A stretch of DNA of 32,000 bases from the NCBI GenBank assembly GCA_041659445.1, contig JBAZYG010000002.1, forward strand, positions 90,001 through 122,000, written 5' to 3'. The position numbers and the translations under genes were made by a program. Shown in pieces: positions 2,932 through 24,712 of this stretch. The stretch comes from Candidatus Saccharimonadota bacterium. Its GTDB lineage: Archaea > Nanobdellota > Nanobdellia > Pacearchaeales > GW2011-AR1. Position 1 is the first letter of the stretch. Every line of letters starts with the position of its first letter. The notes under the pieces were generated by a model. The model ran no database searches, had not been told where the DNA came from, and saw only the letters and a list, made by a program, of their open reading frames with translations.

Positions 2932-3030
2932 TGCGCGAGCCGGGATTCGAACCCGGGTCATCTGGTGACTTCATAAGTTTCGATTAAAAAAGTTTGGAAG
3001 CCAGAGATTCTGCCGCTGAACTACCCACGC
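2932..3030 (-). tRNA. tRNA-Gly(UCC) with an intron of about 28 nt at the canonical 37/38 position; CCA not encoded
   Basis: Hand-folded reverse complement: acceptor GCGTGGG/CTCGCGC with two G-U pairs, D-arm GTTC..GAAT, anticodon stem TCTGG/CCAGA, loop CTTCCA|intron|A, T-arm CCGGG-TTCGAAT-CCCGG, discriminator A. A T6 run follows the 3' end. Confidence 0.8.
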
Positions 3031-3819: not shown

Positions 3820-3824
3820 CGCTA

Positions 3825-3908
3825 TGCGAGAAGAAGGATTCGAACCTTCGCAAGCACTAAGCTACGAGAGCCTTAATCTCGCCCGTTTGACCACTCCGGC
3901 ATTCCCGC
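3825..3908 (-). tRNA. class II (long variable arm) tRNA, Leu-type; the best hand fold gives anticodon AAG
   Basis: Reverse complement GCGGGAA-TG-CCGG-AGTGGTCAA-ACGG-G-CGAGA-TTAAGGC-TCTCG-TAGCTTAGTGCTTGC-GAAGG-TTCGAAT-CCTTC-TTCTCGC-A. It has a 15-nt variable arm and discriminator A, which points to Leu rather than Ser. There is no intron and no encoded CCA. The anticodon register needs tRNAscan-SE confirmation. Confidence 0.75.
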
Positions 3909-3930
3909 ATGAAAAAACTAAAAACTTATC

Positions 3931-4142: not shown

Positions 4143-5036
4143 ATGGAAGAAAACCCGGAAATACAAAATAAAAAGAATTGGCATGATAAATATTATAAAA
4201 TTCTTTTAATTATTCCAGCAGTTTTAATAATTTTTTGTTTAATATATCTAGGAATTTTTTATTCTAATAACGGAGATTTTATAAGAAAAGATATTTCTTT
4301 GACAGGTGGAACAACTGTAACAATTTATGAAAAATTAGATATTTCTTCGTTAGAATCTTTTTTAAATGATAATTTAAACGAGTATCATGTTCGAGAAGTT
4401 TCAGATTTAATTACAAGAGATCAAATTGCAGTAATTGTTGAAACAACTGCAGACGGAGATACAGCAAAATCTGTTTTAGAAAAATATTTAGGTCATTCAT
4501 TAGACGAAAACAACAGTAGTTTTGAATTTTCAGAATCTTCATTCACAAGAGATTTTTATAAGCAATTACTTATCGCAGTTGCAATTGCTTTTGTTTTAAT
4601 GTCAATTGTTGTATTCATTTTATTCAGAAATTTTGTGCCTTCTATTACAGTTATATTTAGTGTATTTGCAGATATTTTAATGACCATTACATTCGTGGAT
4701 ATAATTGGATTGAAAATTTCAACTGCAGGAATTGTTGCTTTCCTTATGTTAATAGGTTATTCTGTAGATACAGATATTCTTCTTACAAATAGAATTTTAA
4801 AAAGACATGAAGGAACTTTAAATGAAAAAACTAAGGGAGCGTTCAAAACAGGAATAACAATGACTTTAACTTCTTTAGTTGCAGTTGTCGCTTCTCTTTT
4901 TGTTGTTAAATCTTTTTCTCCAATATTAACTCAAATTTTTCTGATAATTTCAATTGGATTAGTTTTTGATATAATTAATACATGGATTACAAATACTTCA
5001 ATAATTAAATGGTATGTTTTATCTCGGAAAAAATAA
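4143..5036 (+). CDS. secF: protein-export membrane protein SecF
   Basis: 297 aa with one N-terminal TM, a small extracytoplasmic domain and a C-terminal 5-TM bundle. It carries 'GYSVDTDILLTNRILKR' (compare GYSINDTIVVFDRIRE) and lies immediately upstream of secD. Confidence 0.85.
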   Translation: MEENPEIQNKKNWHDKYYKILLIIPAVLIIFCLIYLGIFYSNNGDFIRKDISLTGGTTVTIYEKLDISSLESFLNDNLNEYHVREVSDLITRDQIAVIVETTADGDTAKSVLEKYLGHSLDENNSSFEFSESSFTRDFYKQLLIAVAIAFVLMSIVVFILFRNFVPSITVIFSVFADILMTITFVDIIGLKISTAGIVAFLMLIGYSVDTDILLTNRILKRHEGTLNEKTKGAFKTGITMTLTSLVAVVASLFVVKSFSPILTQIFLIISIGLVFDIINTWITNTSIIKWYVLSRKK

Positions 5037-5038
5037 AA

Positions 5039-6568
5039 ATGAGAAAATTAGGTTTTAAAATTTGGCTTTTTATTATTGTTTTAATATTGGCAATTATTTC
5101 TATTTTTGTATCTTCAAATGGAATAAACTTTTTTCAAAAAGGAGTTTTAATAACAAGCGTTGAACAAAATTCAACTGCATTTCAAGAAGGATTGAGACAA
5201 GATCAAATAATTAAAACAATCGACGGTGAAAAAATAGATGATTTAGAAAAGTTCACACTGGTTATTAATCAAAAATTTCCTTCAAATGTTTCTCAAAAAA
5301 CAATTATTGAAACTCAAGATTCTGAAATTATTTTATATTCATCAACTGCTCCAGAAATAATTGTATCAAATATCCCGAAGACTAATATAAAAACAGGATT
5401 AGATTTATCTGGAGGAGCAAGAGCTATAATCAAAGCAAAAGATGTTCAGTTAACTTCACAAGAGGCAAGTGATTTAGCGGATATTATAGAGAATAGAGTT
5501 AATAATTATGGACTTAAAGATATAAAAGTTTCTCCTTTTTCAGATTTATCTGGAAATAATTACGTTCGTATGGAAATTGCAGGAGCAACTCCTAAAGATT
5601 TAAAAGATATGATTGAAAGTCAAGGAAAATTTGAAGCAAAAATTGGAGATGAAATTGTTTTCGTCGGTGGAAATAAGGATATTGCTTCTGTTGGAAGAGA
5701 TGCTCAGAACTCAAGAATAGAATCTTGTGATGGTTCTGATGGAGAGTATTATTGTAAATTTACATTTACAATTACTTTAAGTGCAGATGCAGCAAATAGA
5801 CATGCAAATATAACAAATAATTTATCTGTAAATTCAACACCTCAAGGAAATTATCTTTCTAAACCTTTAGACTTGTATCTCGACGATAAATTTGTAGAAA
5901 GTCTTCAAATAAGTGAGGATTTAAAAGGAAGAGTAACAACACAAATTGCAATTTCTGGTTCTGGAACAGGCACAACAGAAGAAGAAGCTTATGAAGCTGC
6001 AACTGATGAAATGCATAAATTACAAACAATCTTAATAACAGGAAGTTTCCCATATGAATTAGAAGTATTAAAGCTCGACGTGATTTCTCCAAACTTAGGA
6101 AATAAATTTGTTATGATTGTTCTTCTTGCAGGTTTAGCTGCGCTTATAAGTGTGGCAATTGTTGTTTTTATTAAATACAGAAAAATTAAACAATCCCTTG
6201 CTGTTTTAGGAATTGGAATATCTGAAATAATAATTACTTTAGGAGTTGCATCATTACTTAGTATTAATTTAGATTTATCAGCAATAGCAGGTGTTTTAGC
6301 AGCGATAGGGACAGGAGTCAACGACCAAATAGTTATCCTCGATGAAGCAAAAAGAAATACAGAATCTAGTTTGAAAGAAAAAATAAAAAAAGCATTTCAG
6401 GTAATTGTCGGAGCTTATTTAACTTTAGTTGTAGCAATGATTCCTCTTTACCTTGCTGGAGGAGGATTGTTAAAAGGATTTGCATCAACAACAATTATAG
6501 GTTTAACACTGGGTATTTTGATAACACGACCTGCATTTAGTGAAATGATAAAAAGATTTGAAAAGTGA
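5039..6568 (+). CDS. secD: protein-export membrane protein SecD
   Basis: Large extracytoplasmic domain followed by a 5-TM bundle with 'GTGVNDQIVILDE'. I prefer the ATG at 5039 (MRKLGFKIW..., an N-terminal TM), 2 nt after the secF stop, over the track's 5009 start, which overlaps secF. Confidence 0.85.
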   Translation: MRKLGFKIWLFIIVLILAIISIFVSSNGINFFQKGVLITSVEQNSTAFQEGLRQDQIIKTIDGEKIDDLEKFTLVINQKFPSNVSQKTIIETQDSEIILYSSTAPEIIVSNIPKTNIKTGLDLSGGARAIIKAKDVQLTSQEASDLADIIENRVNNYGLKDIKVSPFSDLSGNNYVRMEIAGATPKDLKDMIESQGKFEAKIGDEIVFVGGNKDIASVGRDAQNSRIESCDGSDGEYYCKFTFTITLSADAANRHANITNNLSVNSTPQGNYLSKPLDLYLDDKFVESLQISEDLKGRVTTQIAISGSGTGTTEEEAYEAATDEMHKLQTILITGSFPYELEVLKLDVISPNLGNKFVMIVLLAGLAALISVAIVVFIKYRKIKQSLAVLGIGISEIIITLGVASLLSINLDLSAIAGVLAAIGTGVNDQIVILDEAKRNTESSLKEKIKKAFQVIVGAYLTLVVAMIPLYLAGGGLLKGFASTTIIGLTLGILITRPAFSEMIKRFEK

Positions 6569-6602
6569 AAATATTATTAAACATCTTTATTTTTAATATA
6601 AA

Positions 6603-7964
6603 ATGGATTTCTTAGATGGAGAGAGAACAGAAGTAAAAGGGCTTTTTAATAAACTTAAAAAAAGAGATTTTTCAGGAACAAGTGGGCAAGTATTGCGAAA
6701 TTCAAGTTACCAACTTGCAACAATCCTTATATCAAAAATTGCTTCTTTATTTTTCACAATTATTATTGCAAGATTAATGCTCCCAGAATTATTTGGATTA
6801 TATACTTTAACCTTATCAACAATTGCTATTTTTTCTTCTTTTTCAGATTTAGGAATTGGTTCTGCATTAATTACATTTGTTTCAAAATTTTTAGATAAGA
6901 GACAGAATAAAAAAGCAAAATCTTTTTTTAAAGTTTTAATGAAATATAAAATTTATTTATCACTAACTTCATCTTTTTTGCTTGTAATTTTTTCGTATTA
7001 TCTATCAAATATTTATTACAATAAACCAATTTTTCTAGCACTCTTAGTTGGAGGTTTATATCTTTTTATATTTTCATTTTTAGAATTTTTAAATAATTTA
7101 TATAAATCCAACAATAACTTTAAATATCCTTTTTTCAAAGAAGTAATCTTACAAATTCTAAGATTTTGTTTGGTTCCAATTGGAATTTTATTTTTATTAA
7201 AGAATTCTCTTTCAAACGAGATTGTTGTTTTTGGAGTAATTTTAATTTTAACAATTTGTTATTCTTGTGCAACTCTTTTTTTAATATTGTTTTCAAAAAA
7301 GAAAATTTCTTTTTTAAAAGAAAAAAGTGTAAAATTATCAAATAAAGATAAGATTAATTTAAGGAAATTTATTTTACCTCTAAGTACTATGGCTCTTTCA
7401 GGAGTTTTTTTTGGATATATTGATATAATTATGTTGGGACATTTTGTTTCCGAGGAGTTTATAGGTTATTATAGCGCTTCTTTTAGTTTAATTACTTCTG
7501 CAGCTGCAATTATTGGTTTTGTGGGAGCATCAATTCTACCAATTTTTTCTAGGATAAAAAAAGATTTGTTAGAAAAAACATTTAAGAAATCCATAATTTT
7601 CACATTAATTATTTCCTTACTTGGAGCAATATTTTCTTTTTCATTTGCATTTTATATAATTAAAATTGTTTATGGTTTGGAGTATTTTAATTCAATTATT
7701 CTTTTGAAAATATTTTCATTAATGTTGCTGATGATTCCCATTTCAAGCATTTATGAAGCTTATTTTATTTCTCAAGAAAGAACGAAATCTCTTGCATTAT
7801 TTTTGATTTTATCAACTTTACTTAACATAATTTTAAATTACTTTTTTATTACTTTTGGATTGAAGTTTGGATTTATGCAGGCAGTAATCGGAGCATGTGT
7901 TGCAACAATTATTAGTAGGTTTTTTTATGTAATAAGTTTAGCATTGATTAGAAAAAAGAAATGA
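6603..7964 (+). CDS. MOP-superfamily polysaccharide/oligosaccharide flippase (Wzx/RfbX/AglR-like)
   Basis: 453 aa with roughly 12-14 predicted TM helices along the whole length. The N-terminal region 'SSYQLATILISKIASLFFTIIIARLMLPELFGLY' is typical of Polysacc_synt proteins. It lies at the edge of the glycan island. Confidence 0.7.
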   Translation: MDFLDGERTEVKGLFNKLKKRDFSGTSGQVLRNSSYQLATILISKIASLFFTIIIARLMLPELFGLYTLTLSTIAIFSSFSDLGIGSALITFVSKFLDKRQNKKAKSFFKVLMKYKIYLSLTSSFLLVIFSYYLSNIYYNKPIFLALLVGGLYLFIFSFLEFLNNLYKSNNNFKYPFFKEVILQILRFCLVPIGILFLLKNSLSNEIVVFGVILILTICYSCATLFLILFSKKKISFLKEKSVKLSNKDKINLRKFILPLSTMALSGVFFGYIDIIMLGHFVSEEFIGYYSASFSLITSAAAIIGFVGASILPIFSRIKKDLLEKTFKKSIIFTLIISLLGAIFSFSFAFYIIKIVYGLEYFNSIILLKIFSLMLLMIPISSIYEAYFISQERTKSLALFLILSTLLNIILNYFFITFGLKFGFMQAVIGACVATIISRFFYVISLALIRKKK

Positions 7965-7965
7965 A

Positions 7966-9261
7966 TCATTTTTTTTGTTTTTCTATTTCATCAAATGTTT
8001 GTTTCCAATTTTTAAAAGGAATAGCTCTGTCATCAATATAAATTTTTGCTCTTGGTTTTTCACTAGTAACCTCTTTAATATACTTGTCTAAGTTATTTTT
8101 TTTTAACCATTCCCAAATTAGTTGCTTTCCTGTTTTTCCATTTATTAAAGGTCTATCTTCTCTAGCTTTTGCAGTATAAATAATTAAATTATATTTTTTA
8201 GATAAATTGCTTAATGCTTTTTTAGTTTCTGGAAGAGGGTTTCCATAAATTGTTCCGTCATGAAAGCCCTTATCATTATTATGTATGACCCCATCAAAAT
8301 CAATTCCAATATTTTTTTCTTCATCAGGAAAACAAAATTTTCTTATATCTTTTTTTTTAGAATAAGAAGTTTTATCTTCTTTATTTATTTCTTTTAAAAT
8401 TTCTATCATACCTTTTCCAAGTTCTATGTAATTCTCGTTAATAATTTTCTTAGGAATTTCTTCATAGTAAGAATAGGGGGTTATTTTATAGTGTGATTCT
8501 TTTTTTGCTTTCGATGCTTTAATGTTGTAATTTATTTTTACTCCATTTAATATTTCATTAATCATTTCAAAAAGATCTTTAACTCTAATTGGATGTTGGC
8601 CCGTGATAATTATAGATTGATTTTCATATTTTTTATCTAAAACTTTAACACTTAAATTTGCAGCATCATTTACATGAATATATTCTCTACTTTCATTTCC
8701 ATCCCCCAAATAATTAATTTCCCTACTTGTAATAGCTTGCTTTAAATAACGATAAACACTATTTGTTTTTGGAGCACCATATCCATATACTGTTCCATAT
8801 TGTAAAATGGTATATTTTAAACCATAATATTTATAATAATCTTTAATTATACTTTCACATGCTTTTTTTGTTGAAGAATATATTCCTCCAGAACTTCCAT
8901 GAGCATAAAGACTACTTGCAAAAACTATCCTTTTTATTTTATTCTTTTTACAAGATTCAAGGATAATTGCATTTCCAAGAATATTATTTTTTATAGCTTC
9001 AATAGGTTTTTCTATGCATTCTTCAATGTCTGCAATTCCACTAAAATTATAAATAATATCTATTTTTTTTAAGGATTCTTCAACTTTCTTTTGGTCAAGA
9101 GTACTTCCAGATATAAATTTTATTTCTTTATTGAAGGATTCTTCAATTTTTTTTTGATCAAAAATTGATACATCATATCCTTCTTTCAATAATTTTGCAA
9201 CAACATGTTTTCCTATAAATCCTGCTCCTCCAAATACCATTACTCTTTCTTTATTTTTCAT
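7966..9261 (-). CDS. two-domain fusion: NAD-dependent extended SDR epimerase/dehydratase (aa 1 to about 295) plus a C-terminal HAD-like phosphatase domain (aa about 317-425)
   Basis: N-terminal part: 'VFGGAGFIGKHVV' (GxxGxxG) and 'Y128SSTK132' (YxxxK). C-terminal part: HAD motif I 'IDFDGVI' (DxDG), motif II 'IIYTAK', Lys 'EKPRAK', motif IV 'YIDDRA'. It is one uninterrupted ORF whose start is 1 nt after the stop of the upstream gene. Confidence 0.75.
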   Translation of the reverse strand: MKNKERVMVFGGAGFIGKHVVAKLLKEGYDVSIFDQKKIEESFNKEIKFISGSTLDQKKVEESLKKIDIIYNFSGIADIEECIEKPIEAIKNNILGNAIILESCKKNKIKRIVFASSLYAHGSSGGIYSSTKKACESIIKDYYKYYGLKYTILQYGTVYGYGAPKTNSVYRYLKQAITSREINYLGDGNESREYIHVNDAANLSVKVLDKKYENQSIIITGQHPIRVKDLFEMINEILNGVKINYNIKASKAKKESHYKITPYSYYEEIPKKIINENYIELGKGMIEILKEINKEDKTSYSKKKDIRKFCFPDEEKNIGIDFDGVIHNNDKGFHDGTIYGNPLPETKKALSNLSKKYNLIIYTAKAREDRPLINGKTGKQLIWEWLKKNNLDKYIKEVTSEKPRAKIYIDDRAIPFKNWKQTFDEIEKQKK

Positions 9262-9262
9262 T

Positions 9263-10186
9263 TTATTTTTTTTCTAAAAATTTTTTTATATTTTTTACTG
9301 CCCCCATTTCCATGTCTAATCTACTTTTTTCAGTGCAACTTCCTAAATGAGGGGATAAATGGCAATTAGATAATTCAATTAATTTTCCAAAATAAGGTTC
9401 TTGTTCGAAAACATCTATAGCAGCAGAGGCGGATTGATTATCTTTAAGCCAAGAGTATAAGTCTTGTTCGTTAATTATTCCTCCTCTAGAAGTATTAATT
9501 ATTATTGAATTTTTTTTCATAATTTCAAATTCTGTTTTAGATATTAAATTTTTATTTTCTTCATTTAAAGGAATGTGTAAAGTTATAATGTCACAATTTT
9601 TTAAGATATGCTCTAGTTCTTTTATTTTTTCTTTAGAGACACCTATCAATTGAGAAGGTTCAATATCATTGACATACCATATCGAATGAAATCCATCTAA
9701 TTTTTCAGATATTTTTTTACCTATTCTTCCATATCCAATTATTCCAACACAAGATTCTGAAAGTTCTCTTCCAATATATCTATTCCAATTATGATTTTTT
9801 ATATCATTACCTACTTCAGGAATTTTTCTTAAGAGGTTTAACATATGTCCCATAGTTAATTCTGCTACTGCATTCGAAGGAGCGTCAGGAGTATTTGTTA
9901 CATAAATTCCATTTTTTTCGCATTCAAGCAAATCTACAGAATCCAAGCCAATGCCCACTCTAGATATAATTTTTACTTTTTTGCAATAATTTAAAATCTC
10001 TTTGTCGTATTTTTCAGTTCCTGCTATAATTATATCTGGATTATAATCTTTTAAAACTTCTATTAATTCTTCTTTAGAATATTTTCTCCCAATTTGATTG
10101 TATCTTATCTCTCCAATTTTTTCCAAGGTTTCTCTTGGTGCTGAATTAATTTTCCCAAAAGAATCTGTATTAACTAATATTTTCAT
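9263..10186 (-). CDS. D-isomer-specific 2-hydroxyacid dehydrogenase (phosphoglycerate dehydrogenase-like)
   Basis: 'GIIGYGRIGKKISEKL' is the NAD fold. 'NTSRGGIINEQDL', 'DVFEQEP' and 'SPHLGS' give the catalytic R/E/H pattern. I prefer the ATG at 10186 (MKILVN...) because a TATA-like box is centred about 25 nt upstream of it; the track start 10198 is only about 12 nt from that box. Confidence 0.8.
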   Translation of the reverse strand: MKILVNTDSFGKINSAPRETLEKIGEIRYNQIGRKYSKEELIEVLKDYNPDIIIAGTEKYDKEILNYCKKVKIISRVGIGLDSVDLLECEKNGIYVTNTPDAPSNAVAELTMGHMLNLLRKIPEVGNDIKNHNWNRYIGRELSESCVGIIGYGRIGKKISEKLDGFHSIWYVNDIEPSQLIGVSKEKIKELEHILKNCDIITLHIPLNEENKNLISKTEFEIMKKNSIIINTSRGGIINEQDLYSWLKDNQSASAAIDVFEQEPYFGKLIELSNCHLSPHLGSCTEKSRLDMEMGAVKNIKKFLEKK

Positions 10187-10206
10187 ATTAAGGAGCATGA
10201 ACTTTA

Positions 10207-10218
10207 TTTTTTAAGGTT
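10207..10218 (-). promoter_or_regulatory. putative BRE/TATA box for the 2-hydroxyacid-DH / SDR-HAD operon
   Basis: Minus strand aaCCTTAAAAAA, centred about 25 nt upstream of the ATG at 10186. Confidence 0.45.
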
Positions 10219-10318
10219 TTGTATGATTCATCTCATATTTTAATTCTACTTGATGGTATTTTTTATTGGGAAATTTTTTTACTTATATTGGTATTTTATT
10301 CATATTTTTCATTATAAT

Positions 10319-10330
10319 AATCTTTATAAA
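10319..10330 (+). promoter_or_regulatory. putative BRE/TATA box for the GT-B-like gene at 10354
   Basis: AATCTTTATAAA, centred about 27 nt upstream of the ATG. Confidence 0.5.
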
Positions 10331-10353
10331 GAAACATTTCTCCTGTTTTTTCA

Positions 10354-11538
10354 ATGGAAAATAAAAAAATTTTAACAACATCTTGGCATCCATCTGCAAC
10401 AAATATGCTTATTCCAGTTCTTAACATATTGCAAAAGCAAAAAGAATTAGATATATCTATTATCGGAACTAAATATTCTAATAGAGTATTTGAAAAAAAC
10501 GGTTTTTCTTATCTCCCTATTGAATCATATGGTCTCAAAAATTTCGCAGAAGCAAATATGGAAAAAATTTTATTAAAGGAAAATCCTGATTTGGTTCTTT
10601 TAGGAGCAAGTTTTCAAGAAGTTCAGAGTGGAGAGAGGTACATCCCTGATCAAACAATGATTAATGCAGCAAGAAGACAAGGTATTCCTTCTATCACAAT
10701 TCACGATTATTGGAGAGATATGGCAAAATATACAAATAAAATAACTGGAAGAATTGAATTTATCCCAGATGCTATTGCAGTATTTGATTCTTATGCTAAG
10801 AAAAAATTAATTGAAGCAGGATTACCTGAGCAAGTTATCAAAATTACTGGAAATCCAGAAGCAGATATTCTTAAACAAACAAAAGAAAATTTTTCAGATA
10901 CAAGAAAATATGAATTAAAAAAAGTTTTTGATATAAAAGTTCAAGATGTTTTTCTTTATTGTGGTGGTGTTGAATGGAATAAAAATAAATCTAAATTAGG
11001 GTATACCACTCTTGATAATATAAAAATTATTACAGATTCTTTAAAAGATATTGGAAGAGATGATCTGAATGTTATAGTAACATTACATCCACGAATGGCT
11101 CAGAATGATGAATCAGGTATGAGAGATGTATTAAATCATTTAAAAAATTGTGGGGATTCAAGAATAAAATATATAGATCAAGTTTATGAAAAAGGGTTTA
11201 CAATGGAAGAATTGGCTTTAGCCTCTAATGCTGTTTTCACTGCTTTTTCAACAGTTGCTATTAAAGGAGCATGGATGGGCAAGCCATGTATGAGCTTACA
11301 ACCAAATTTAATTCTTCCAAATGATTTTACAGATGGGGAAATCGGATTTTTTCTTGATCATTCAAATGTAATTCCTTTAGGAAAAAATTATAAAGAAGCC
11401 AAGGATTTAGTAATTAAAATGTTCACAGATAAAAAATTAATAAGCGATTTAGAAAAAAGTTTAGTTAATTGTCCAGATATGACTCTTCAATCAGGCTCAC
11501 AGGGAATAATGGATTTAATTAAAGAAAACATTAATTAA
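10354..11538 (+). CDS. two-Rossmann-domain (GT-B-like) protein of unassigned family; resembles UDP-GlcNAc 2-epimerase and TagF/capsule-synthesis layouts
   Basis: 394 aa. Landmarks in the order seen in Epimerase_2/TagF/KpsS-type proteins: 'ITIHDYWRD', 'ITGNPEADIL', 'VIVTLHPR' (HP motif) and 'AVFTAFSTVAIKGAWMGKP'. It is certainly a real gene with a leaderless promoter; the function is not assignable by eye. Confidence 0.45.
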   Translation: MENKKILTTSWHPSATNMLIPVLNILQKQKELDISIIGTKYSNRVFEKNGFSYLPIESYGLKNFAEANMEKILLKENPDLVLLGASFQEVQSGERYIPDQTMINAARRQGIPSITIHDYWRDMAKYTNKITGRIEFIPDAIAVFDSYAKKKLIEAGLPEQVIKITGNPEADILKQTKENFSDTRKYELKKVFDIKVQDVFLYCGGVEWNKNKSKLGYTTLDNIKIITDSLKDIGRDDLNVIVTLHPRMAQNDESGMRDVLNHLKNCGDSRIKYIDQVYEKGFTMEELALASNAVFTAFSTVAIKGAWMGKPCMSLQPNLILPNDFTDGEIGFFLDHSNVIPLGKNYKEAKDLVIKMFTDKKLISDLEKSLVNCPDMTLQSGSQGIMDLIKENIN

Positions 11539-11562
11539 TTTTTAATAATCTTTTTTATCAAT

Positions 11563-12267
11563 TTATAAATAATCTTTTCCAGTTATTTTTTTTATTCTAT
11601 CTCTATTTTCAAAAAATAATTCTGCTTTTAAGAAGTCAAGAGGATTGTCAAGATCTAATCCTTCAATGTCATCAACTTCTAACATGTAAGGATAATTTCC
11701 GATTCTTCTTTTAAGTTCTTTTAATGCCTCTTTTTTAATAGCATAAAGTCCAGTTGTTTCAACTTTTATTGGAGTTGCATCTTGAGATCTTGGAAGTTTT
11801 CCAGGAAAGTAAGTAATAGGATTTCCATTATACCATATCCAATCATGTCTTGTATTAATTGTAAAAATAGAATCATGTTCATTTTCTTTTAAGATTTTTA
11901 TTGCTTCATTTATTGTTTCAACTCTTAAAAAAGGGGCAGTTACAAATAATTGAACATAAATATCAGCATCTATTTTTTCAAATGGGATGGTTAGCATCTT
12001 GTCTCCAGTTATATCTCTTTCAAAATAATAGTTTGGAACTTCAAAAATTTCAGCCCCCATTTCTTTAATTTCTTCTTTTATGTTATCATTTGCATCTGTA
12101 ATAACAAAGATTTTATCTAAATTACTTAGCAAAGCCTTTTTAATCATATAATAATATAAGGGTTTTTCTCCTAAATTTTTAAGATTTTTTTCTGGAATTC
12201 TTTCACTTCGAGATTTAAAAGCAATTATACCTACACTTTCATAATTCATTTTACTTGAGTTTTCCAT
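11563..12267 (-). CDS. NeuA/KdsB-family cytidylyltransferase (CMP-ulosonic acid synthetase-like, CTP_transf_3)
   Basis: 'VGIIAFKSRSERIPEKNLKNLGEKPLYYYMIKKAL...KIFVITD' matches the N-terminal CTP-binding pattern (ARxxSxRxPxKN...GKPLI). 'LFVTAPFLR' resembles LQPTSPLR. 'PRSQD' and 'LDLDNPLDFLKAELF' resemble IDIDTxxDxxxAE. Confidence 0.8.
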   Translation of the reverse strand: MENSSKMNYESVGIIAFKSRSERIPEKNLKNLGEKPLYYYMIKKALLSNLDKIFVITDANDNIKEEIKEMGAEIFEVPNYYFERDITGDKMLTIPFEKIDADIYVQLFVTAPFLRVETINEAIKILKENEHDSIFTINTRHDWIWYNGNPITYFPGKLPRSQDATPIKVETTGLYAIKKEALKELKRRIGNYPYMLEVDDIEGLDLDNPLDFLKAELFFENRDRIKKITGKDYL

Positions 12268-12288
12268 ATAAATTTCTTTCTTTGTTAA

Positions 12289-12296
12289 TATATAAA
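12289..12296 (-). promoter_or_regulatory. putative TATA box for the cytidylyltransferase gene
   Basis: Minus strand TTTATATA, centred about 25-26 nt upstream of the ATG at 12267. Confidence 0.45.
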
Positions 12297-12314
12297 TTTA
12301 ATTGTTTTAAATAG

Positions 12315-13646
12315 CTATTTTATTCTTTTAATAACTTCCTCATAATAAACCTTTGGTGTTTTTTTATTTGGGGTTATTTTAAAATTTTTTTCAAACTCTT
12401 TTGCATAAAATTTTTTGAATTTTTGGTATGTTTTTGGATTTTTAATCTTTTCAAATCTTCTTTCTAATTCTTTTTTATCCTTAAATTTGTCTTCATTTTT
12501 CCAGAGATTTATTAAAAATTTATCATTAAATCTAAAAATTGGTTTTTCATATCTTAAAGCTTCAATAGCAATTGTAGAATTATGTAAAATTATGAAATCA
12601 CTTTCTTCAATTCTTTTCATTATAGGGATATTTGAATCAGCAAAATTTACATTTTTAGCATCCATTATTTTTTTGTAATTTTCAAGGTTATCAAATGGAT
12701 GAACAGAAGCTTCAAAAATTATTTTAGGATATTTTTTAGCAAAATCATTTATTATTTTTGCCATATTTTTGTTGGTGTTAGTTTCTCCTCCTGGAACAGG
12801 GAAGAATACAACGCATTTTTTTGGATTAAAAATTTTTGAATCATTCTTAACTATTGAAGAATATTTTGGGTTTCCAACAACTATTAATCTAGAATTATTG
12901 GTATATTTTTTTAAAACATTATAGGTAGTTTTTCCCCAAATTAAGTTATAATCTGAAATAACATTTTCATTTAATATCATGGCTCCATGAAAATAAGGAT
13001 ATTCAACAATAAATCCATGTTGCAAAGTAAATGTGGGAATTTTATTTATTTTGCAAATTGAAGTTAAAATTGTCTCCTCTGCAAATGCTTGTGAGCAAAA
13101 TGATATATATGCTTTCGGTAAAATTTTTTTATAAAGTTTATGAAATCTCTTTATTTCTTGATGTCTTTGGTATGTTCTTGCTAAAATAATATAATAATAT
13201 TTTCCCAATAGTTTTTTCAATTTATTTCTTTTAAATTTATTAAGTATTTTAAGGAACAAAAAAATATTCGGAAAAATAATTCTTCCTTTTTTTAATCCTT
13301 TTTTCTTTTTTAACTCATAATTGTCTAAAATTATTAAATCTTCTTTTGGAAAATCTTCTATTGCTTTGTAAACTAATGAATGATGGTCTTCTCTAGGCAT
13401 AAAATAACTAACCAATATTTTATTTTTTTCTTTATGGGTTAAATTCATTTCATCTTTAAAAAAAAGACATTTTAAGAAAATCATTTTTCTTTCTTTCTTT
13501 TCTATGTTTTTGTTTGAATAATATGTATAAATGTCATTTGCCATAATTGGCCATAAATTTATTCCTTTATAATTCATTTTAAGATAGAATTCTTTCATTT
13601 CTTTTATGAAGGGGATTTTTTCATTCCATAGATTTTCCTTTTTCAT
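12315..13646 (-). CDS. TagF/capsule-synthesis/sialyltransferase-like 'HP-motif' GT-B-type transferase (family unassigned)
   Basis: 443 aa, very Lys-rich. The landmarks 'TLQHGF' (compare WHG of TagF-type enzymes), 'VVFFPVPGG', 'ASVHPFD' (HP motif) and 'SDFIILHNSTIAIEALRYEKP' occur in the order used by CDP-/CMP-donor GT-B enzymes. This is motif recall only. Confidence 0.45.
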   Translation of the reverse strand: MKKENLWNEKIPFIKEMKEFYLKMNYKGINLWPIMANDIYTYYSNKNIEKKERKMIFLKCLFFKDEMNLTHKEKNKILVSYFMPREDHHSLVYKAIEDFPKEDLIILDNYELKKKKGLKKGRIIFPNIFLFLKILNKFKRNKLKKLLGKYYYIILARTYQRHQEIKRFHKLYKKILPKAYISFCSQAFAEETILTSICKINKIPTFTLQHGFIVEYPYFHGAMILNENVISDYNLIWGKTTYNVLKKYTNNSRLIVVGNPKYSSIVKNDSKIFNPKKCVVFFPVPGGETNTNKNMAKIINDFAKKYPKIIFEASVHPFDNLENYKKIMDAKNVNFADSNIPIMKRIEESDFIILHNSTIAIEALRYEKPIFRFNDKFLINLWKNEDKFKDKKELERRFEKIKNPKTYQKFKKFYAKEFEKNFKITPNKKTPKVYYEEVIKRIK

Positions 13647-13666: not shown

Positions 13667-13676
13667 TTTTTTAAAT
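13667..13676 (-). promoter_or_regulatory. putative TATA box for the 443-aa HP-motif gene
   Basis: Minus strand aTTTAAAAAA, centred about 25 nt upstream of the ATG at 13646. Confidence 0.45.
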
Positions 13677-13687
13677 ATTATTATAAT

Positions 13688-14623
13688 TTAAAATTTAGAA
13701 TAAAATTCAATACTTCTTCTCAAACCTTCTTCTAGGGAGACTTTTGGAATCCAACCAAGTTTTTGTAATTTTGTTGAATCTTGATATTGTTCTTGAATTT
13801 CCATAAGACTTACTGGTCGTCCGTGAACTTTTATATTTGTATCAGGATCTTTTTTCATTAAAATGCATATTTTTTCCATAAGGTCTTTGATTGTTAAATG
13901 TTCTGTTCCACCACAACAATATATTTCACCAGGTTTACCTTTTTTTGATACTAAATTAAATGCATCCAAAGCGTCGTCGATATATACAAACTCTCGAATA
14001 TGTTTTTCAGAATCTTCCCAAAGAAAAGCTGATTCTCCTTTTGAAAGACGAGTAATTGTTTTAGGAATAACACGAGACATATTAAAGTCTCCAGGACCAT
14101 AAAGATTTGAGCATGTAACAATTTTTATTGGGAGGCCATATTGTCGATGAAAATGCAATCCTGTAAGTTGTTGGCATGCTTTTGAAGTATCATAAGTAAA
14201 AAGAGGTTCAAGGTTACTTTCTTCATTATAAGGCACTTTTGCTTTTCCATACGCTTTATCACTAGTAGAAATAACTATACTTTCGATATTCCCTCCACCA
14301 TAATTTTTACAAGTTTCAAGCAATGAAACTGTTCCAAGAACATTTGTTTTAAAAGTTTTATATGGATCATTAGAGCATATTCCTACAATTGATTCTGCTG
14401 CAAAATGATACACCTCATTTATTTGATGCCTTACAATTATTTCTTTAATTAATTCTATATCATTTAAATCTCCTTGTGTATGGAAATCTGGATTGTATTC
14501 AATATTTTTGCTAAAAACATTTCCCCTATCTAATCCTATTACTCTGTTGTTTTTATCTTGTTTTAATTTTTTTACTAATGCTTTTCCAACAAATCCTTCA
14601 GAGCCAGTAATGAGTATATTCAT
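13688..14623 (-). CDS. NDP-sugar 4,6-dehydratase/epimerase (extended SDR)
   Basis: 'ILITGSEGFVGKAL', 'STSDKAYG' and 'YDTSKACQQL' (YxxxK), 311 aa. The STSDKxYG pattern resembles CDP-/NDP-hexose 4,6-dehydratases. It is divergent from an aminotransferase-acetyltransferase pair. Confidence 0.75.
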   Translation of the reverse strand: MNILITGSEGFVGKALVKKLKQDKNNRVIGLDRGNVFSKNIEYNPDFHTQGDLNDIELIKEIIVRHQINEVYHFAAESIVGICSNDPYKTFKTNVLGTVSLLETCKNYGGGNIESIVISTSDKAYGKAKVPYNEESNLEPLFTYDTSKACQQLTGLHFHRQYGLPIKIVTCSNLYGPGDFNMSRVIPKTITRLSKGESAFLWEDSEKHIREFVYIDDALDAFNLVSKKGKPGEIYCCGGTEHLTIKDLMEKICILMKKDPDTNIKVHGRPVSLMEIQEQYQDSTKLQKLGWIPKVSLEEGLRRSIEFYSKF

Positions 14624-14644
14624 AAATTTTATTTGTTTTATTCT

Positions 14645-14700
14645 TTTTTAAAGATTTATATGCTGATGTAGTTTATTAATTAGATATAAATCTTTATAAA
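14645..14700. promoter_or_regulatory. mirror-symmetric divergent promoter pair: a 17-nt inverted repeat (16/17 match) that contains both BRE/TATA boxes
   Basis: 14645-14661 tttttaaagatttatat matches the reverse complement of 14684-14700 (tttataaagatttatat). Each AATCTTTA(A/T)AAA box is centred about 26 nt from its ATG (14623 on the minus strand, 14723 on the plus strand). Confidence 0.55.
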
Positions 14701-14722
14701 CATCTATTATAATTTATTTTTC

Positions 14723-15829
14723 ATGGTCAAGCATATTCCTTTATCTTCACCAGATATAAATTTAAATGATAAAATGGAAGTCTTAAAAGTTTTATCTACT
14801 CGTCATTTGACGCAAGGTCCTAAAATAAATGAGTTTGAAAAAAAGTTTTCAGAATATTTAGAAGTTCCATATGCAATTGCAGTAAATAGTGGAACAAGTG
14901 CATTGCATCTTGCAGTTAGAAGTTTAGGTTTGCAGATGGGAGATGAAGTAATTGTTACACCTTTTAGTTTCATTGCTTCAAGTAATTGTTTGTTAATGGA
15001 AAAAATAAAACCTGTTTTTGTTGATATAAATGAAAAAGATTTTAATATCGATCCAGAATTAATAGAAGAAAAAATAACAAAAAAAACAAAAGCAATTCTT
15101 CCAGTAGATATTTTTGGAAATCCAATAAAAATTAAGGAAATTAAAATTTTATCAGAGAAATATAGTTTACCTATTTTAGAAGATTCTTGTGAAGCTCTTG
15201 GGGCAGAGTATAGTGGTGCAAAAGTCGGAACTTTATCTGACATTGCGACATTTGGATTTTATCCAAATAAACAAATAACAACTGGAGAAGGAGGAATGAT
15301 TGTTACCTTTAATAAAAATCTTGCAGAGCTTTGCATAAGTATGAGAAATCAAGGAAGAAATATAAATGGAGATTGGTTTTTTTATGAAAGATTAGGATAT
15401 AATTATCGAATGAATGAAATGAGTGCAGCATTAGGTTCTGCTCAAATGAATAGGATTGAAGAAATTTTATCTAAAAGAAAAAAAGTCGCAAATATTTATC
15501 TTAAAAAATTAAAAGATTTAGAAGGAATTATTTTACCTTATAATGACGAAAATAAAAGTTGGTTTAACTTTGTTATTAGAGTTGATGAAAAAATTAGAAA
15601 TAATCTTTTAAAATATCTTCAAACAGAAGGAATTGAATGTAAAAATTATTTTCCATCAATACATTTAGAACCTTTTTACATGAAAGAATTTGGATATAAA
15701 AAAGGAGATTTTCCAATTTCAGAAAAAATTTCAAGTCAGACAATTGCTCTGCCTTTTTATAATTTATTAAAAGAAGAAGACATATCTTATATTAAAGATA
15801 AATTAGAAAAAGGAATAAAAAATGCATAG
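14723..15829 (+). CDS. DegT/DnrJ/EryC1/StrS-family PLP-dependent sugar aminotransferase
   Basis: 'IPLSSPDIN...LTQGPKINEFEKKFSEYLEVPYAIAVNSGTSALHLA' and 'FYPNKQITTGEGGMIVT' (PLP-Lys context). Confidence 0.85.
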   Translation: MVKHIPLSSPDINLNDKMEVLKVLSTRHLTQGPKINEFEKKFSEYLEVPYAIAVNSGTSALHLAVRSLGLQMGDEVIVTPFSFIASSNCLLMEKIKPVFVDINEKDFNIDPELIEEKITKKTKAILPVDIFGNPIKIKEIKILSEKYSLPILEDSCEALGAEYSGAKVGTLSDIATFGFYPNKQITTGEGGMIVTFNKNLAELCISMRNQGRNINGDWFFYERLGYNYRMNEMSAALGSAQMNRIEEILSKRKKVANIYLKKLKDLEGIILPYNDENKSWFNFVIRVDEKIRNNLLKYLQTEGIECKNYFPSIHLEPFYMKEFGYKKGDFPISEKISSQTIALPFYNLLKEEDISYIKDKLEKGIKNA

Positions 15830-16223
15830 TCAAGAATGGAAAGATAAGTGGAAATTATCAAAGATAGAACATGGTAAATTAACAAAATACAATTTCTTAG
15901 TTCATTATCCTGAAGGACTTACTTTAGGGAAGTATATTGATATTTCTCAATTTGTTTATATTCAATCAAGAATGGGAGTAATAATTGAAGATGATGTTGA
16001 AATTGGACCATTTACAGCAATATTATCTGAAAGTACAATAGATAATAAATCTGGTTTAATTAAAATTTGTAAAGGGGCAAAAATAGGAACTCATTCAACA
16101 ATAATGCCGAATGTCACAATAGGTGAAAATTCAATTATTGGAGCATATAGTTTAGTAAAAAAAGACATACCACCGAATGTAATAGCTTACGGCGTGCCTT
16201 GCAAAATAATTAAAAAACTTTAA
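15822..16223 (+). CDS. left-handed beta-helix (hexapeptide-repeat) sugar N-acetyltransferase
   Basis: Hexapeptide repeats 'IGTHSTIMPNVTIGENSIIGAYSLV', ending '...PPNVIAYGVPCKIIKKL'. It has an 8-nt overlap with the upstream aminotransferase. Confidence 0.8.
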   Translation: MHSQEWKDKWKLSKIEHGKLTKYNFLVHYPEGLTLGKYIDISQFVYIQSRMGVIIEDDVEIGPFTAILSESTIDNKSGLIKICKGAKIGTHSTIMPNVTIGENSIIGAYSLVKKDIPPNVIAYGVPCKIIKKL

Positions 16224-16247
16224 ATAAGTATTTTGCTTGTTTTTAAA

Positions 16248-17165
16248 ATGAATAATTTATCTATAAATACACCCATTTTATTAATCGCTTTTAATCGTCC
16301 AGATTTAGTAAAAAAGGTTTTTGAAGAAATAAAAAAAGCAAAACCAAAAAAATTATTTGTGTCTGTAGATGGTCCGAGAAATAATGAAGAAAAAATAAAA
16401 GTAGATGAAGTAAAAAAAATAGTTTCTAATGTAGATTGGCCTTGTAAATTAAATAAAAGATTTCAAGATAAAAATTTAGGAATCATTGGTGGGGCGTTGG
16501 GTGCAATTGATTGGTTCTTTGAAAATGTTGAAGAAGGAATAATTCTTGAAGATGACGCAATACCAAATCAAGATTTTTTTAAATTTTGTTCTGAGCTTTT
16601 GAAAAAATACCGAAACGATGAAAAGATTATGCAAATTAATGGTTGTAATTTTCAAAGAGGTTGGAAAAGAGAAAAATATTCTTATTATTTTTCAAAATAT
16701 GCTCATACTTATGGATGGGCTACTTGGAGAAGAGCTCGTAGAAAATATGATTCTAAAATGCAATTTTATTTGGAGTTAAAGAAAAAAAAATATTTTTCAG
16801 ATATTTTTCCAAATAAAATAGAAAGAAAATATATTTTACATATAATGGATGATGCCTATTTTAAGATTCCAGAAGCAATAGATACAAGATGGGTTTATTC
16901 TGTTTTAATTAATGACGGTTTATGTATTACTCCAAATGAAAATTTAGTTCAAAACATTGGATTCGGAAAAGATGCAACACATACAAAGAAAAGTGATTCT
17001 TTTTTTTCAATTCCTACAAATAATTTAAGTTTTCCATTAATTCACCCACAATTTATTATTAGAGATAGGCTTTCTGATGAAAGATATGCTAAATGGTTAT
17101 TCAAAAATAGAGTAAAAAAATTTATTATAAAAAGATTTAGTTTTTCTTTAAAACATAAAAAATAG
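16248..17165 (+). CDS. GT-A-fold nucleotide-diphospho-sugar transferase (HlpA-like/GNT-I-like)
   Basis: 'PILLIAFNRPDLVKKVFEEI...LFVSVDGPR' and 'ILEDDAIP' (DxD-like). The ATG at 16248 is preferred over the track's TTG at 16233. Confidence 0.5.
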   Translation: MNNLSINTPILLIAFNRPDLVKKVFEEIKKAKPKKLFVSVDGPRNNEEKIKVDEVKKIVSNVDWPCKLNKRFQDKNLGIIGGALGAIDWFFENVEEGIILEDDAIPNQDFFKFCSELLKKYRNDEKIMQINGCNFQRGWKREKYSYYFSKYAHTYGWATWRRARRKYDSKMQFYLELKKKKYFSDIFPNKIERKYILHIMDDAYFKIPEAIDTRWVYSVLINDGLCITPNENLVQNIGFGKDATHTKKSDSFFSIPTNNLSFPLIHPQFIIRDRLSDERYAKWLFKNRVKKFIIKRFSFSLKHKK

Positions 17166-24275: not shown

Positions 24276-24334
24276 TTTATTTTGTAATATATTTAAGAAA
24301 TGAATGTTTTTAAATTTGAATTTTTTTATTTGTA

Positions 24335-24712
24335 TTATAATTTGTTATAATCTTCAACAATTTTTCTCAATTTTGGATCTTTAACATCTGCTATTTTTTC
24401 AGAAGTAGTTACTCCCCATTCAGAAACAATAGAATCTTCTAACCCTACAAATGCATGTGCTATTTTTGGATTTATTGTTCCAGAATTTCCTTTATTAAGA
24501 ATTTTTTCTTCATATGGTCCATCAATTTGACCATAAATATATTTTATTTGACCTTTAATTACTACAAAATTTTCTGGAATAGTATGATAACATCCTCCTC
24601 TTGCTCTTCCTTTTTTTATTTCCATAAATGTGAATTCTTGCTGATTGTCAAGTAATCCTTCAACAGATTTTATATATCCTCTTTTATCTTCATGAATATC
24701 TATAATTTTCAT
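24335..24712 (-). CDS. small cupin, sugar-nucleotide keto-isomerase/epimerase-like (FdtA/WxcM/RmlC-type)
   Basis: 125 aa. 'DKRGYIKSVE' resembles the D.RG...E entry motif, and 'RARGGCYHTIPENFVVIKGQIKY' resembles the RGxHxH...G strand pattern. ATGA-coupled to the upstream aminotransferase. Confidence 0.5.
   Translation of the reverse strand: MKIIDIHEDKRGYIKSVEGLLDNQQEFTFMEIKKGRARGGCYHTIPENFVVIKGQIKYIYGQIDGPYEEKILNKGNSGTINPKIAHAFVGLEDSIVSEWGVTTSEKIADVKDPKLRKIVEDYNKL

Follow-up and report, generated by a model that had tools for sequence, protein, structure and literature searches.

To our knowledge, all known sugars activated by cytidine monophosphate (CMP), namely Kdo, the sialic, legionaminic (Leg) and pseudaminic (Pse) acids and Kdn, are built by a synthase that condenses phosphoenolpyruvate (PEP). 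Among the closest described systems are the CMP-Kdo pathway (KdsD, KdsA, the HAD phosphatase KdsC and KdsB) together with the vertebrate and Bacteroides pathways through Neu5Ac-9-phosphate or Kdn-9-phosphate, and the canonical Leg cluster (LegB, LegC, LegH, LegG, LegI and LegF with PtmA, PtmE and PtmF). We analyzed a 32,000-nucleotide stretch of contig JBAZYG010000002.1 (positions 90,001 to 122,000; GenBank assembly GCA_041659445.1, placed by GTDB in the archaeal Pacearchaeales), hereafter the window, in which five adjacent genes, A to E, occupy positions 7966-13646. These genes and their relatives share with the first group an isomerase, a phosphatase, a CTP_transf_3 cytidylyltransferase and a putative HP-motif transferase of the glycosyltransferase (GT) fold GT-B, but they contain two NAD-dehydrogenases instead of KdsA or NeuB, their sister loci encode a GmhA-type rather than a KdsD-type isomerase, and their product would retain the C3 hydroxyl rather than being 3-deoxy. 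With the Leg cluster, the genes and their neighbors have in common a dehydratase, an aminotransferase, an acetyltransferase, the 2-epimerase fold, a cytidylyltransferase like PseF/LegF and, adjacent to it, an oxidoreductase; in contrast, the module loci are without LegI (NeuB) and add a 2-Hacid_dh dehydrogenase, a phosphatase, GmhA, a transaldolase and fusions to the cytidylyltransferase. We read the five genes as one lineage variant of a conserved cassette that, with no synthase condensing PEP or pyruvate, would make a CMP-linked acidic sugar for addition to an AglB-dependent N-glycan, and we put the probability of this reading at about 45%.

An earlier, sequence-only reading of the window had called five adjacent open reading frames (ORFs), and their coordinates and strands proved exact: A (7966..9261), B (9263..10198), D (11563..12267) and E (12315..13646) lie on the minus strand and C (10354..11538) on the plus strand. 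The enzyme on which that reading centered, D, is indeed a cytidylyltransferase of the NeuA/PseF/KdsB type, matching CTP_transf_3 (PF02348, E = 3.4e-16) with 60.2 bits against a gathering threshold (GA) of 22.6. It retains the motif pattern of the family, an N-terminal (K/R)xxSxR-P-KN, PRSQD and a C-terminal LDLD..D, in the form KSRSERIPEKN, PRSQD and LDLDNPLDF, which align with the KdsB-like and PseF-like enzymes of two bacterial loci discussed below (L022 and L024, respectively); we take these motifs to be the N-terminal Arg/Lys CTP-binding loop, the sugar-binding R-x-Q-D and the C-terminal DxD metal site. CTP_transf_3 enzymes with PRSQD and DxD typically activate free 2-ulosonic acids, not phosphomonoesters. 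Because D retains these motifs, its product is most likely a CMP-linked 2-ulosonic acid, and that D makes some CMP-acid sugar is the part of the scheme that we predict with the greatest confidence. The best NCBIfam model, PseF (TIGR03584), scored 66.3 bits against a cutoff of 205.7, and the KdsB models (TIGR00466 and NF009905) scored at most 35 bits, short of their cutoffs; as D matches no specific equivalog, its substrate is not readable from its family.

The two genes that end the module on the Wzx side encode dehydrogenases. Protein A begins with an extended short-chain dehydrogenase/reductase (SDR; residues 1 to ~295; PF01370, E = 1.6e-40), whose best NCBIfam matches are GalE/RmlB/LegB-like and all far below cutoff, and ends in a tail of ~135 residues. 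The sequence-only reading had described an SDR-HAD fusion; the SDR half stands on this family match, and the HAD half is carried by a motif order, DFD-G-IH ... T/S ... EKPRA ... YIDD, that is invariant in 10 orthologues. The isolated tail matched no Pfam family even at E ≤ 10, a single-sequence search of the Protein Data Bank (PDB) returned no match for it, and its profile aligned by hhalign with three canonical HADs over partial regions only (E 0.013-0.09). The tail is retained in ~10 DPANN orthologues of A, and P0078 joins an orthologous SDR to a canonical HAD recognized by Pfam. From the motif order we propose that the tail is a HAD-like phosphatase, and that A would oxidize C1 of a sugar phosphate and, through its tail, later remove the phosphate. 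SDRs of the A type have hundreds of standalone relatives of ~295 residues with 40-50% identity, and those that carry names are all bacterial (Armatimonadetes, Omnitrophica, Magnetobacterium and Desulfobacter). Protein B is a D-isomer 2-hydroxyacid dehydrogenase resembling 3-phosphoglycerate dehydrogenase (PGDH) and PdxB; it matches PF02826 (3.7e-47, 160 bits) and PF00389 (4e-25, 88 bits), both above GA, and shows the Arg-Glu-His triad and GxGxxG of that family in RGG..., DVFEQEP, SPHLG and GYGRIG. Its best NCBIfam model is PGDH (SerA, TIGR01327), at 248.7 bits against an equivalog cutoff of 454, and we propose that it oxidizes the C2 hydroxyl to give a 2-keto acid. The gene call for B on the source contig has 307 residues; the ORF starts at 10198, and a TATA box fits Met-5 at 10186, which is probably the true start.

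We fetched the genomic contexts of E, C and A relatives (L001 and following) and tabulated their genes by BLAST against Pfam-labelled references, which gave 15 distinct DPANN loci, the window included, with flanks of 10 kb. E and CTP_transf_3 occur in all 15 loci, 2-Hacid_dh in 14, and a second NAD-oxidoreductase likewise in 14 (GFO_IDH_MocA in 10; an A-type SDR in four, namely the window, L004, L012 and L020), a degree of co-occurrence that marks a module far beyond chance. The remaining components vary. The phosphatase is of the IMPase family in 6 of the 15 loci and the HAD-like tail in the lineage of the window; four loci have a GmhA-like SIS_2 gene (near-equivalog, 187-199 bits against a cutoff of 209), which in L005 overlaps that for 2-Hacid_dh; two more, L011 and L019, have a TAL_FSA transaldolase/aldolase gene behind an SIS_2-like gene with a weaker match; and C is present in four, immediately after CTP_transf_3 in L005, L006 and L007. 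L002 is colinear with the window and has SIS_2, Inositol_P, 2-Hacid_dh, GFO_IDH and CTP_transf_3 in place of A, B, C and D, an arrangement that reads as non-orthologous displacement at a fixed position, of SDR and GFO_IDH for one another and of HAD-like and IMPase phosphatases likewise. The comparison of synteny across related MAGs (metagenome-assembled genomes) that the sequence-only reading had suggested yields a module that is kept while its precursor genes change.

Several of these components are joined in single polypeptides: GFO_IDH::2-Hacid_dh in L001 and L006, SDR::HAD-like in the window and ~10 orthologues with the canonical HAD version in P0078, and, in a Nanoarchaeota locus (L019, 1966-5425, minus strand), CTP_transf_3::GFO_IDH (612 residues) and 2-Hacid_dh::Inositol_P (547 residues), two apparent fusions that could also be assembly or frameshift artefacts. 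The fusions are a strong argument for a single pathway that uses both dehydrogenases, the phosphatase and the cytidylyltransferase, which bears out the earlier grouping of the dehydrogenase and phosphatase genes with the cytidylyltransferase. An NTP_transferase-GHMP kinase fusion in L001 and L007 had led us to consider GmhA and the phosphatase as parts of a nucleoside diphosphate (NDP)-heptose pathway; this was rejected, since L002, L015 and the window do not have the kinase fusion, the GmhA gene overlaps that of 2-Hacid_dh, and in L019 phosphatase and 2-Hacid_dh form one polypeptide. As a separate observation, TAL_FSA genes, which are unusual in a glycosylation island, lie in the glycan loci L011 (15976-17572), L019 (5532-7032) and L026 (2183-2848), in L011 and L019 beside the SIS_2-like genes; they hint at ketose phosphates of the pentose phosphate pathway as feed.

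The module is not confined to archaea: its SDR(::HAD), 2-Hacid_dh and CTP_transf_3 core occurs in bacteria too. The bacterial locus L026 has the order SDR::HAD, 2-Hacid_dh, radical SAM, CTP_transf_3, ..., Wzx, with TAL_FSA, HldE-like and IMPase genes nearby, and a Desulfobacter locus (L027) the order 2-Hacid_dh, CTP_transf_3, SDR, GFO_IDH, ..., A-like SDR. Protein A of the window is 45% and 42% identical to its counterparts in L026 and L027, and B 44% and 42%, compared with 39% between B and the 2-Hacid_dh proteins of the DPANN modules of the GFO type; judged by these identities, A and B form an orthologous cross-domain cassette. The large proteins beside CTP_transf_3 in L026 (577 residues) and L027 (630 residues) were tried as relatives of E or C and rejected, so the bacterial cassettes must use another transferase. 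Radical SAM genes, some with B12-binding and some with SPASM domains, accompany the cassette in L026 (12353-17378 and 18614-19633), L004 (14000-15130), L018 (17594-18715) and L011 (2-1903), and C-methylation or epimerization of the acid sugar are examples of what their products may do.

None of these loci yielded a synthase. Searches for NeuB, KdsA, DHDPS and HMGL families found no member in any ORF of at least 100 residues in the window, as the sequence-only reading had stated, nor in the preceding 8.6 kb of the source contig, a stretch with ribosomal-protein and RNA-polymerase genes. Neither did they find one in the gene tables of L001-L007 or the 30 unclassified ORFs of L011-L021, which together make up ~15 loci with 10-kb flanks, and the contexts of L026 and L027 also contained no synthase. 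In the loci examined, the NeuB/PseI/LegI or KdsA gene that marks a textbook nonulosonic-acid or Kdo cluster is absent. Together with a C that was an ordinary 2-epimerase and an E that was a standard GT1 or GT4, a nearby neuB would reduce the module to such a pathway; we found instead that C scores below GA, that E matches neither GT1 nor GT4 and that no neuB lies in the ~15 loci. The literature search returned no description of the cassette or of such a pathway.

The AlphaFold2 model of E, a 443-residue protein, is confident (pLDDT 92.9) and has a GT-B fold, on which ground E was rejected as a cryptic synthase. Its HP motif, H315-P316, is invariant in 33 of 33 sequences. E has no match in Pfam and none to NF046086, and a single-sequence PDB search returned nothing significant. 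The solved structures nearest to its model are UDP-GlcNAc 2-epimerases (TM-score ~0.5, E = 6e-10, 10-14% identity), relative to which E has an additional N-terminal helical region. The family proper comprises ~36 proteins, almost all from DPANN archaea. When we searched exhaustively with its profile, 3,299 cluster representatives were found at E ≤ 1e-3 and 884 at E ≤ 1e-10; among 73 full-length distant relatives, none matches any Pfam family, 18 weakly match TIGR04396, the model of a "surface carbohydrate biosynthesis protein", and 16 weakly match NF046086, the "BFO_1060 family glycosyltransferase" (best E 1e-9 to 1e-10). By these profile scores E is a neighbor, not a member, of the BFO_1060 and TIGR04396 families, and the only annotated neighbors of its superfamily of more than 3,000 uncurated clusters are the Pse/Leg transferases of Tannerella forsythia. 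These orthologous proteins (BFO_1060, Tanf_01245 and TFUB4_00887) transfer Pse or Leg derivatives, have 442-445 residues, a GT-B/TagB-like fold and an HP motif, and deletion mutants lose the terminal nonulosonate (PMC5420450). E is like them in its length (~443 residues), its soluble, GT-B, HP-motif architecture and the position of its gene beside a CMP-acid-sugar pathway, and differs in that its donor sugar is probably no nonulosonate. The strict co-occurrence of E with CTP_transf_3 and the contexts of its bacterial homologues point to a CMP-sugar transferase, and E is likely, with less assurance than we have for D, to transfer the acid sugar that D would activate.

The bacterial homologues in question (E = 2.5e-36 and 1.3e-23 against the DPANN profile) lie in O-antigen-type clusters of Brenneria salicis (L022) and a gammaproteobacterium (L024). 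Both clusters (L022, 5214-10804; L024, 6468-10711) combine a ~540-residue HMGL-like protein resembling 4-hydroxy-2-oxovalerate aldolase with a HAD, CTP_transf_3, Wzx, the E-like GT-B protein and a hexapeptide acetyltransferase; the CTP_transf_3 of Brenneria passes the KdsB-subfamily cutoff (283 against 255 bits). Here the HMGL aldolase plausibly takes the role of the synthase, and the E-like protein is the obvious candidate transferase. The cassette looks like another uncharacterized CMP-keto-acid-sugar pathway, in which a class-II-aldolase-type synthase replaces NeuB/KdsA.

Protein C is a second GT-B protein with a UDP-GlcNAc-2-epimerase-like fold (AlphaFold2, pLDDT 87.4). Its HP element, H245-P246, is invariant in 6 of 6 sequences; the HP landmark named by the sequence-only reading is real in both proteins, and the structural modeling it had suggested gave confident models of both proteins with UDP-GlcNAc 2-epimerases as nearest relatives. 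In Foldseek the model of C is superimposable on WecB/MnaA, the top matches (TM-score 0.67-0.70, E = 1e-14, 15-17% identity); UDP-2,3-diacetamido-glucuronate 2-epimerase (8syd/8syb) is also among the matches. It scored 23.3 bits on Epimerase_2 (PF02350; GA 30.6), over the C-terminal half only, and 15.8 bits on Glyphos_transf (PF04464; GA 22.1; E = 0.007); NCBIfam contained no match, and a single-sequence PDB search found nothing significant. Like WecB, MnaA and NeuC, which are the best structural matches of both proteins, C and E show a GNP turn, an H-P element and, near the C terminus, an (S/T)..E/K..P element; unlike them, they stay below the Pfam GA, at 10-17% identity. The catalytic residues of WecB, in E. 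coli numbering, are D95, E117, E131 and H213. A low-confidence hhalign alignment of C with E. coli WecB (E = 0.029) keeps H213 (H245), places S86 at D95 and K125/Y126 at E131, and has no counterpart of the HVEAG segment. Going by this alignment, C apparently does not conserve the catalytic carboxylates D95, E117 and E131 and, also missing the Pfam gathering score, would not be an ordinary 2-epimerase. The family of C is tiny, with five homologues among 5.8e9 proteins, all from DPANN archaea. Aligned with the E family by hhalign (probability 94%, E = 1e-7, ~240 columns), C shares the GNP turn, the HP element and a C-terminal (S/T)-x-A...P element already pointed out by the sequence-only reading, which marks C and E as distant paralogues. 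Of the earlier description of C and E as unassignable, it holds that neither reaches the threshold of a curated family, but not that they stand alone, since they are paralogues of each other and the E superfamily borders the T. forsythia transferases. By analogy, C may be a second CMP-sugar transferase, as in the KpsS/KpsC pair, or an epimerase acting beside the anomeric carbon of the CMP-sugar.

The destination of the sugar is suggested by the rest of the window. A Wzx-type flippase gene (6603..7964, plus strand; PF01943/PF13440) adjoins the module and is syntenic with it in most DPANN loci. An AglB/STT3 oligosaccharyltransferase gene (27532-30258, minus strand; PF02516, PF21436 and PF22627) stands beside that of an initiating enzyme of the GlcNAc-1-P-transferase family (GPT; 30296-31297, minus strand; PF00953), a pair that identifies the island as an N-glycosylation locus. 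A profile scan of the window found no ABC exporter of the TagGH/KpsMT kind and no polymerase. With Wzx, AglB/STT3 and GPT present, and these families absent, the likely product is an archaeal N-glycan, and the wall-teichoic-acid or group-2-capsule logic seen by the sequence-only reading is not supported.

The absence of a condensing synthase and the enzymes actually present suggest an oxidative route. An aldose phosphate would enter, in sister loci derived from sedoheptulose-7-phosphate by the GmhA-type isomerase, with a transaldolase sometimes supplying the sedoheptulose-7-phosphate. The SDR domain of A, or GFO_IDH_MocA in most relatives, would oxidize C1 to an aldonate phosphate, and B would oxidize the C2 hydroxyl to a 2-keto-aldonate (2-ulosonate) phosphate. 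The HAD-like tail of A, or an IMPase-family protein elsewhere, would remove the phosphate, D would form the CMP-ulosonate with CTP, and E would transfer the ulosonate to a lipid-linked glycan that Wzx flips and AglB moves to protein. Each oxidation has precedents: the GFO_IDH_MocA and extended-SDR families include archaeal aldose and aldose-6-phosphate 1-dehydrogenases (Haloferax xylose dehydrogenase and the glucose-6-phosphate dehydrogenase Azf), and 2-Hacid_dh members such as GhrB/TkrA, KguD and PdxB interconvert aldonates and 2-keto-aldonates. Epd/PdxB, KguD and GhrB/TkrA resemble the proposed route in the two-step oxidation of an aldose phosphate through an aldonate phosphate to a 2-keto-aldonate phosphate, but they serve vitamin B6 synthesis or catabolism, and we know of none that supplies a CMP-sugar or a glycan. 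The main attraction of the scheme is that each conserved or variable gene gets a role and none is left over. We infer both the route and the identity of the sugar, and propose the double oxidation and a non-3-deoxy 2-ulosonic acid as its product tentatively, with the odds somewhat against them. The cassette follows no textbook pathway and combines a known cytidylyltransferase family, a putative transferase of an uncurated GT-B superfamily and an apparently synthase-independent redox route.

Several points weigh against this reading. Chief among them is that a synthase may be encoded elsewhere in the genome, as the searches covered the loci and their flanks. The phosphatase gene is absent from L005, L007, L012, L015, L017 and L020, and the window itself has neither GmhA nor a transaldolase, so that it may start from another sugar phosphate than the sister loci do. 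Thermodynamically, the NAD-linked oxidation of a 2-hydroxyacid runs uphill and needs later steps to pull it, and extended SDRs of ~295 residues usually act on NDP-sugars. We know of no non-3-deoxy hept- or hex-2-ulosonic acid from any glycan, and the literature search yielded none; the new CMP-ulosonic acids of the SugarBase preprint are higher-carbon sugars, from Magnetospirillum. The link of E to known transferases stays below threshold, with 40.1 bits on TIGR04396 (cutoff 125) and, as the best PDB sequence match of its profile, KpsC at E = 0.14, a non-significant match in which "vHP" of E aligns to "KVHPD" and "EAL..P" to "FEALLAGKP". Finally, the dehydratase, DegT and hexapeptide genes at 13688-16223, taken with the 2-epimerase folds and with D as a PseF-like enzyme, look like five-sixths of a Leg/Pse pathway, and in canonical Leg clusters, too, an oxidoreductase gene (PtmF) and PtmA stand beside LegF (PMC4481668).

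These last points lead to the strongest rival, a Leg/Pse-type nonulosonate pathway with its NeuB-type synthase elsewhere in the genome, which we consider unlikely. The genes at 13688-16223 would make an NDP-2,4-diacetamido-6-deoxyhexose, C or E would be a LegG/PseG-like hydrolase/2-epimerase and D would be LegF/PseF, with A, B and the phosphatase as accessory enzymes that supply precursors like PtmA/PtmF or form a glyceroyl-type N-acyl group, as in Pse5Am7Gra of T. forsythia. The DegT protein scores 319 bits on PseC and 271 on LegC, D finds its best model in PseF, and the acetyltransferase resembles NeuD/PglB; C and E adopt the fold of the 2-epimerases NeuC and LegG, E directly adjoins the 4,6-dehydratase-like SDR in 7 loci, and an NTP_transferase-kinase fusion in some loci is reminiscent of PtmE. 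Yet every equivalog cutoff is missed by a wide margin, C appears, on its low-confidence alignment, to be without the catalytic carboxylates, and ~15 independent loci contain no synthase in their 10-kb flanks, whereas canonical clusters keep LegI/PseI and LegG (PMC4481668). The bacterial E homologues sit with an aldolase, a HAD and a KdsB-like enzyme in clusters that have no diacetamido-sugar genes, where a transferase role fits better. A 2-Hacid_dh is foreign to known Leg/Pse clusters, and GmhA, the transaldolase and the CTP_transf_3::GFO_IDH and 2-Hacid_dh::IMPase fusions would stay unexplained.

The fusions bear also on the improbable case that the genes have separate functions, with A/GFO_IDH and B acting on NDP-sugars for a different glycan residue, for example in a 3-oxidation of the WbpB/WlbA type in which B recycles NADH, C serving as a WbpI-like 2-epimerase, and D and E belonging to an unrelated CMP-sugar. 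A GFO_IDH, a DegT, a hexapeptide acetyltransferase and an Epimerase_2 are the textbook logic of UDP-ManNAc3NAcA, the Foldseek matches of C include 8syd/8syb, and A resembles an NDP-sugar SDR. But through CTP_transf_3::GFO_IDH in L019 and the further fusions the cytidylyltransferase is linked to the redox enzymes and the phosphatase, A, B and CTP_transf_3 stay together in the bacterial cassettes although the genes around them are quite different, an NDP-sugar route has no use for phosphatases and GmhA, and the profile scan of the window found no UDP-GlcNAc 6-dehydrogenase. Least probable, and very improbable in our estimate, is a CDP- or CMP-linked polyol phosphate or hydroxy-acid phosphate donor (such as glycerate phosphate) used by TagF/TagB-like C and E to build a teichoic- or capsule-like polymer on a GT26/GlcNAc-1-P primer. 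B is most similar to PGDH, C has the weak Glyphos_transf match, a GT26 gene is present, and the T. forsythia transferases have been noted as TagB-like (PMC5420450). KpsC/KpsS (GT107) and TagF/TagB are indeed GT-B proteins with an HP motif and CMP or CDP donors, and C and E are paralogues in the manner of KpsS and KpsC, but membership of the TagF/KpsC families, to which the sequence-only reading had leaned, is not borne out: C stays below the Glyphos_transf threshold, E has no Pfam match and its KpsC match is insignificant, and the Capsule_synth threshold is not reached either. The PRSQD and DxD motifs seen in D belong, as textbook knowledge, to activation of free 2-ulosonic acids, a phospho-donor is hard to square with a pathway that includes a phosphatase, Wzx and AglB take the place of an ABC exporter and polymerase and point to an N-glycan product, and GmhA, the transaldolase and the second oxidoreductase would have no role.

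If the synthase-independent reading is right, the cassette embodies a new biosynthetic logic, with two dehydrogenases in place of a synthase, and probably yields a new acidic sugar. The cell surfaces of DPANN archaea mediate obligate attachment to hosts, and DPANN glycans are essentially uncharacterized. For the unannotated GT-B proteins of more than 3,000 clusters, the reading would be a first clue to function, and likewise for bacterial O-antigen and surface-glycan cassettes to which present-day annotation pipelines give no label but "NAD-dependent oxidoreductase / hypothetical protein". In its widest form, which we regard as doubtful, DPANN archaea and some bacteria would share a whole new class of CMP-sugar, a non-3-deoxy hept- or hex-2-ulosonate made by stepwise oxidation at C1 and C2 of a sugar phosphate of the pentose phosphate pathway independently of NeuB/KdsA, the GT-B superfamily of more than 3,000 clusters would attach it, and C would be a CMP-sugar 3-epimerase working by WecB-like elimination and re-addition.

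The window has a G+C content of ~26% and contains archaeal markers in AglB/STT3 and SecDF (4143-6568); protein E is identical to the hypothetical protein WC812_04075 of a Candidatus Pacearchaeota MAG. Positions ~6600-31300 are a single glycosylation island. Near the module it comprises the Wzx flippase and, at 13688-16223, the 4,6-dehydratase-like SDR, DegT aminotransferase and hexapeptide acetyltransferase genes; further on come a GT-A-like conserved protein, methyltransferases, GT4, GT26 (WecG/TagA) and GT11, then a GDP-mannose dehydratase, a second DegT and a cupin, and finally AglB and the GlcNAc-1-P-transferase-family enzyme. Within it, the minus-strand genes at 22300-26954 form a second sugar sub-pathway (GDP-mannose 4,6-dehydratase, DegT, a small cupin, GT4 and a fucosyltransferase-family gene of GT11), which points to one more residue of this glycan, a 6-deoxyhexose resembling GDP-perosamine or colitose. 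SecF-SecD, Wzx and the CMP-sugar module constitute a synteny block (4143-7964 in the window) that recurs in L002, L004, L005, L006, L012, L014, L015 and L020, spans MAGs of Pacearchaeota, Woesearchaeota and Nanoarchaeota, and may anchor searches for glycan islands.

The GT-A-like protein has 310 residues (16233-17165, plus strand), lacks a significant family match and a significant hit in a single-sequence PDB search, and is found in nearly all related DPANN loci at 45-68% identity. It was rejected as a cryptic synthase, as it resembles a GT-A glycosyltransferase; judging from an "EDD" motif and faint likeness to GT25 (E = 0.002) and POMGnT1/GT13 (E = 0.12), it is probably an uncurated member of that group.

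Promoters in the window were assessed from the position of TATA-like hexamers relative to start codons. A scan for sigma-70 promoters and terminators in the window gave 43 sites against 46.8 expected, which is chance level, and is unsuited to an archaeon. In contrast to a background of 9.5%, 13 of 29 window genes have a TATA-like hexamer centered between -32 and -22 from the ATG, nearly all at -26/-25, with a consensus of roughly AATCTTTAWAAA 25-26 nt upstream of the ATG that is also seen, for example, at 14693-14700. Boxes placed this sharply imply that most transcription units of this genome begin with a gene whose mRNA is leaderless. The four leaderless-type promoters that had been assigned to the five module genes are present: TTTATAA at 10323..10329 (plus strand; centered ~27 nt upstream of the C ATG), TTTATATA at 12289..12296 (minus; ~26 nt upstream of the D ATG), and the TATA-like boxes ATATTTAAAA at 13668..13677 (minus; ~26 nt upstream of the E ATG) and TTAAAAAATAA at 10204..10214 (minus; ~25 nt upstream of the Met-5 start of B). 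A, which abuts B, has no TATA box of its own, and the TTAAAAAATAA box would drive a B-A operon in which A is co-transcribed with B.

Two antisense ORFs, at 12415-12678 (plus strand, 87 residues, inside E) and 14803-15243 (minus strand, 146 residues, inside the DegT gene), are most likely spurious products of AT-rich sequence. Outside the island, a match to Rfam RF00005 (52.4 bits, E = 1.3e-10) at 2932-3030 on the minus strand is an intron-containing tRNA, its anticodon loop interrupted by ~30 nt; it was missed by ARAGORN, whose only call was a tRNA-Leu at 3824-3909 (minus strand).

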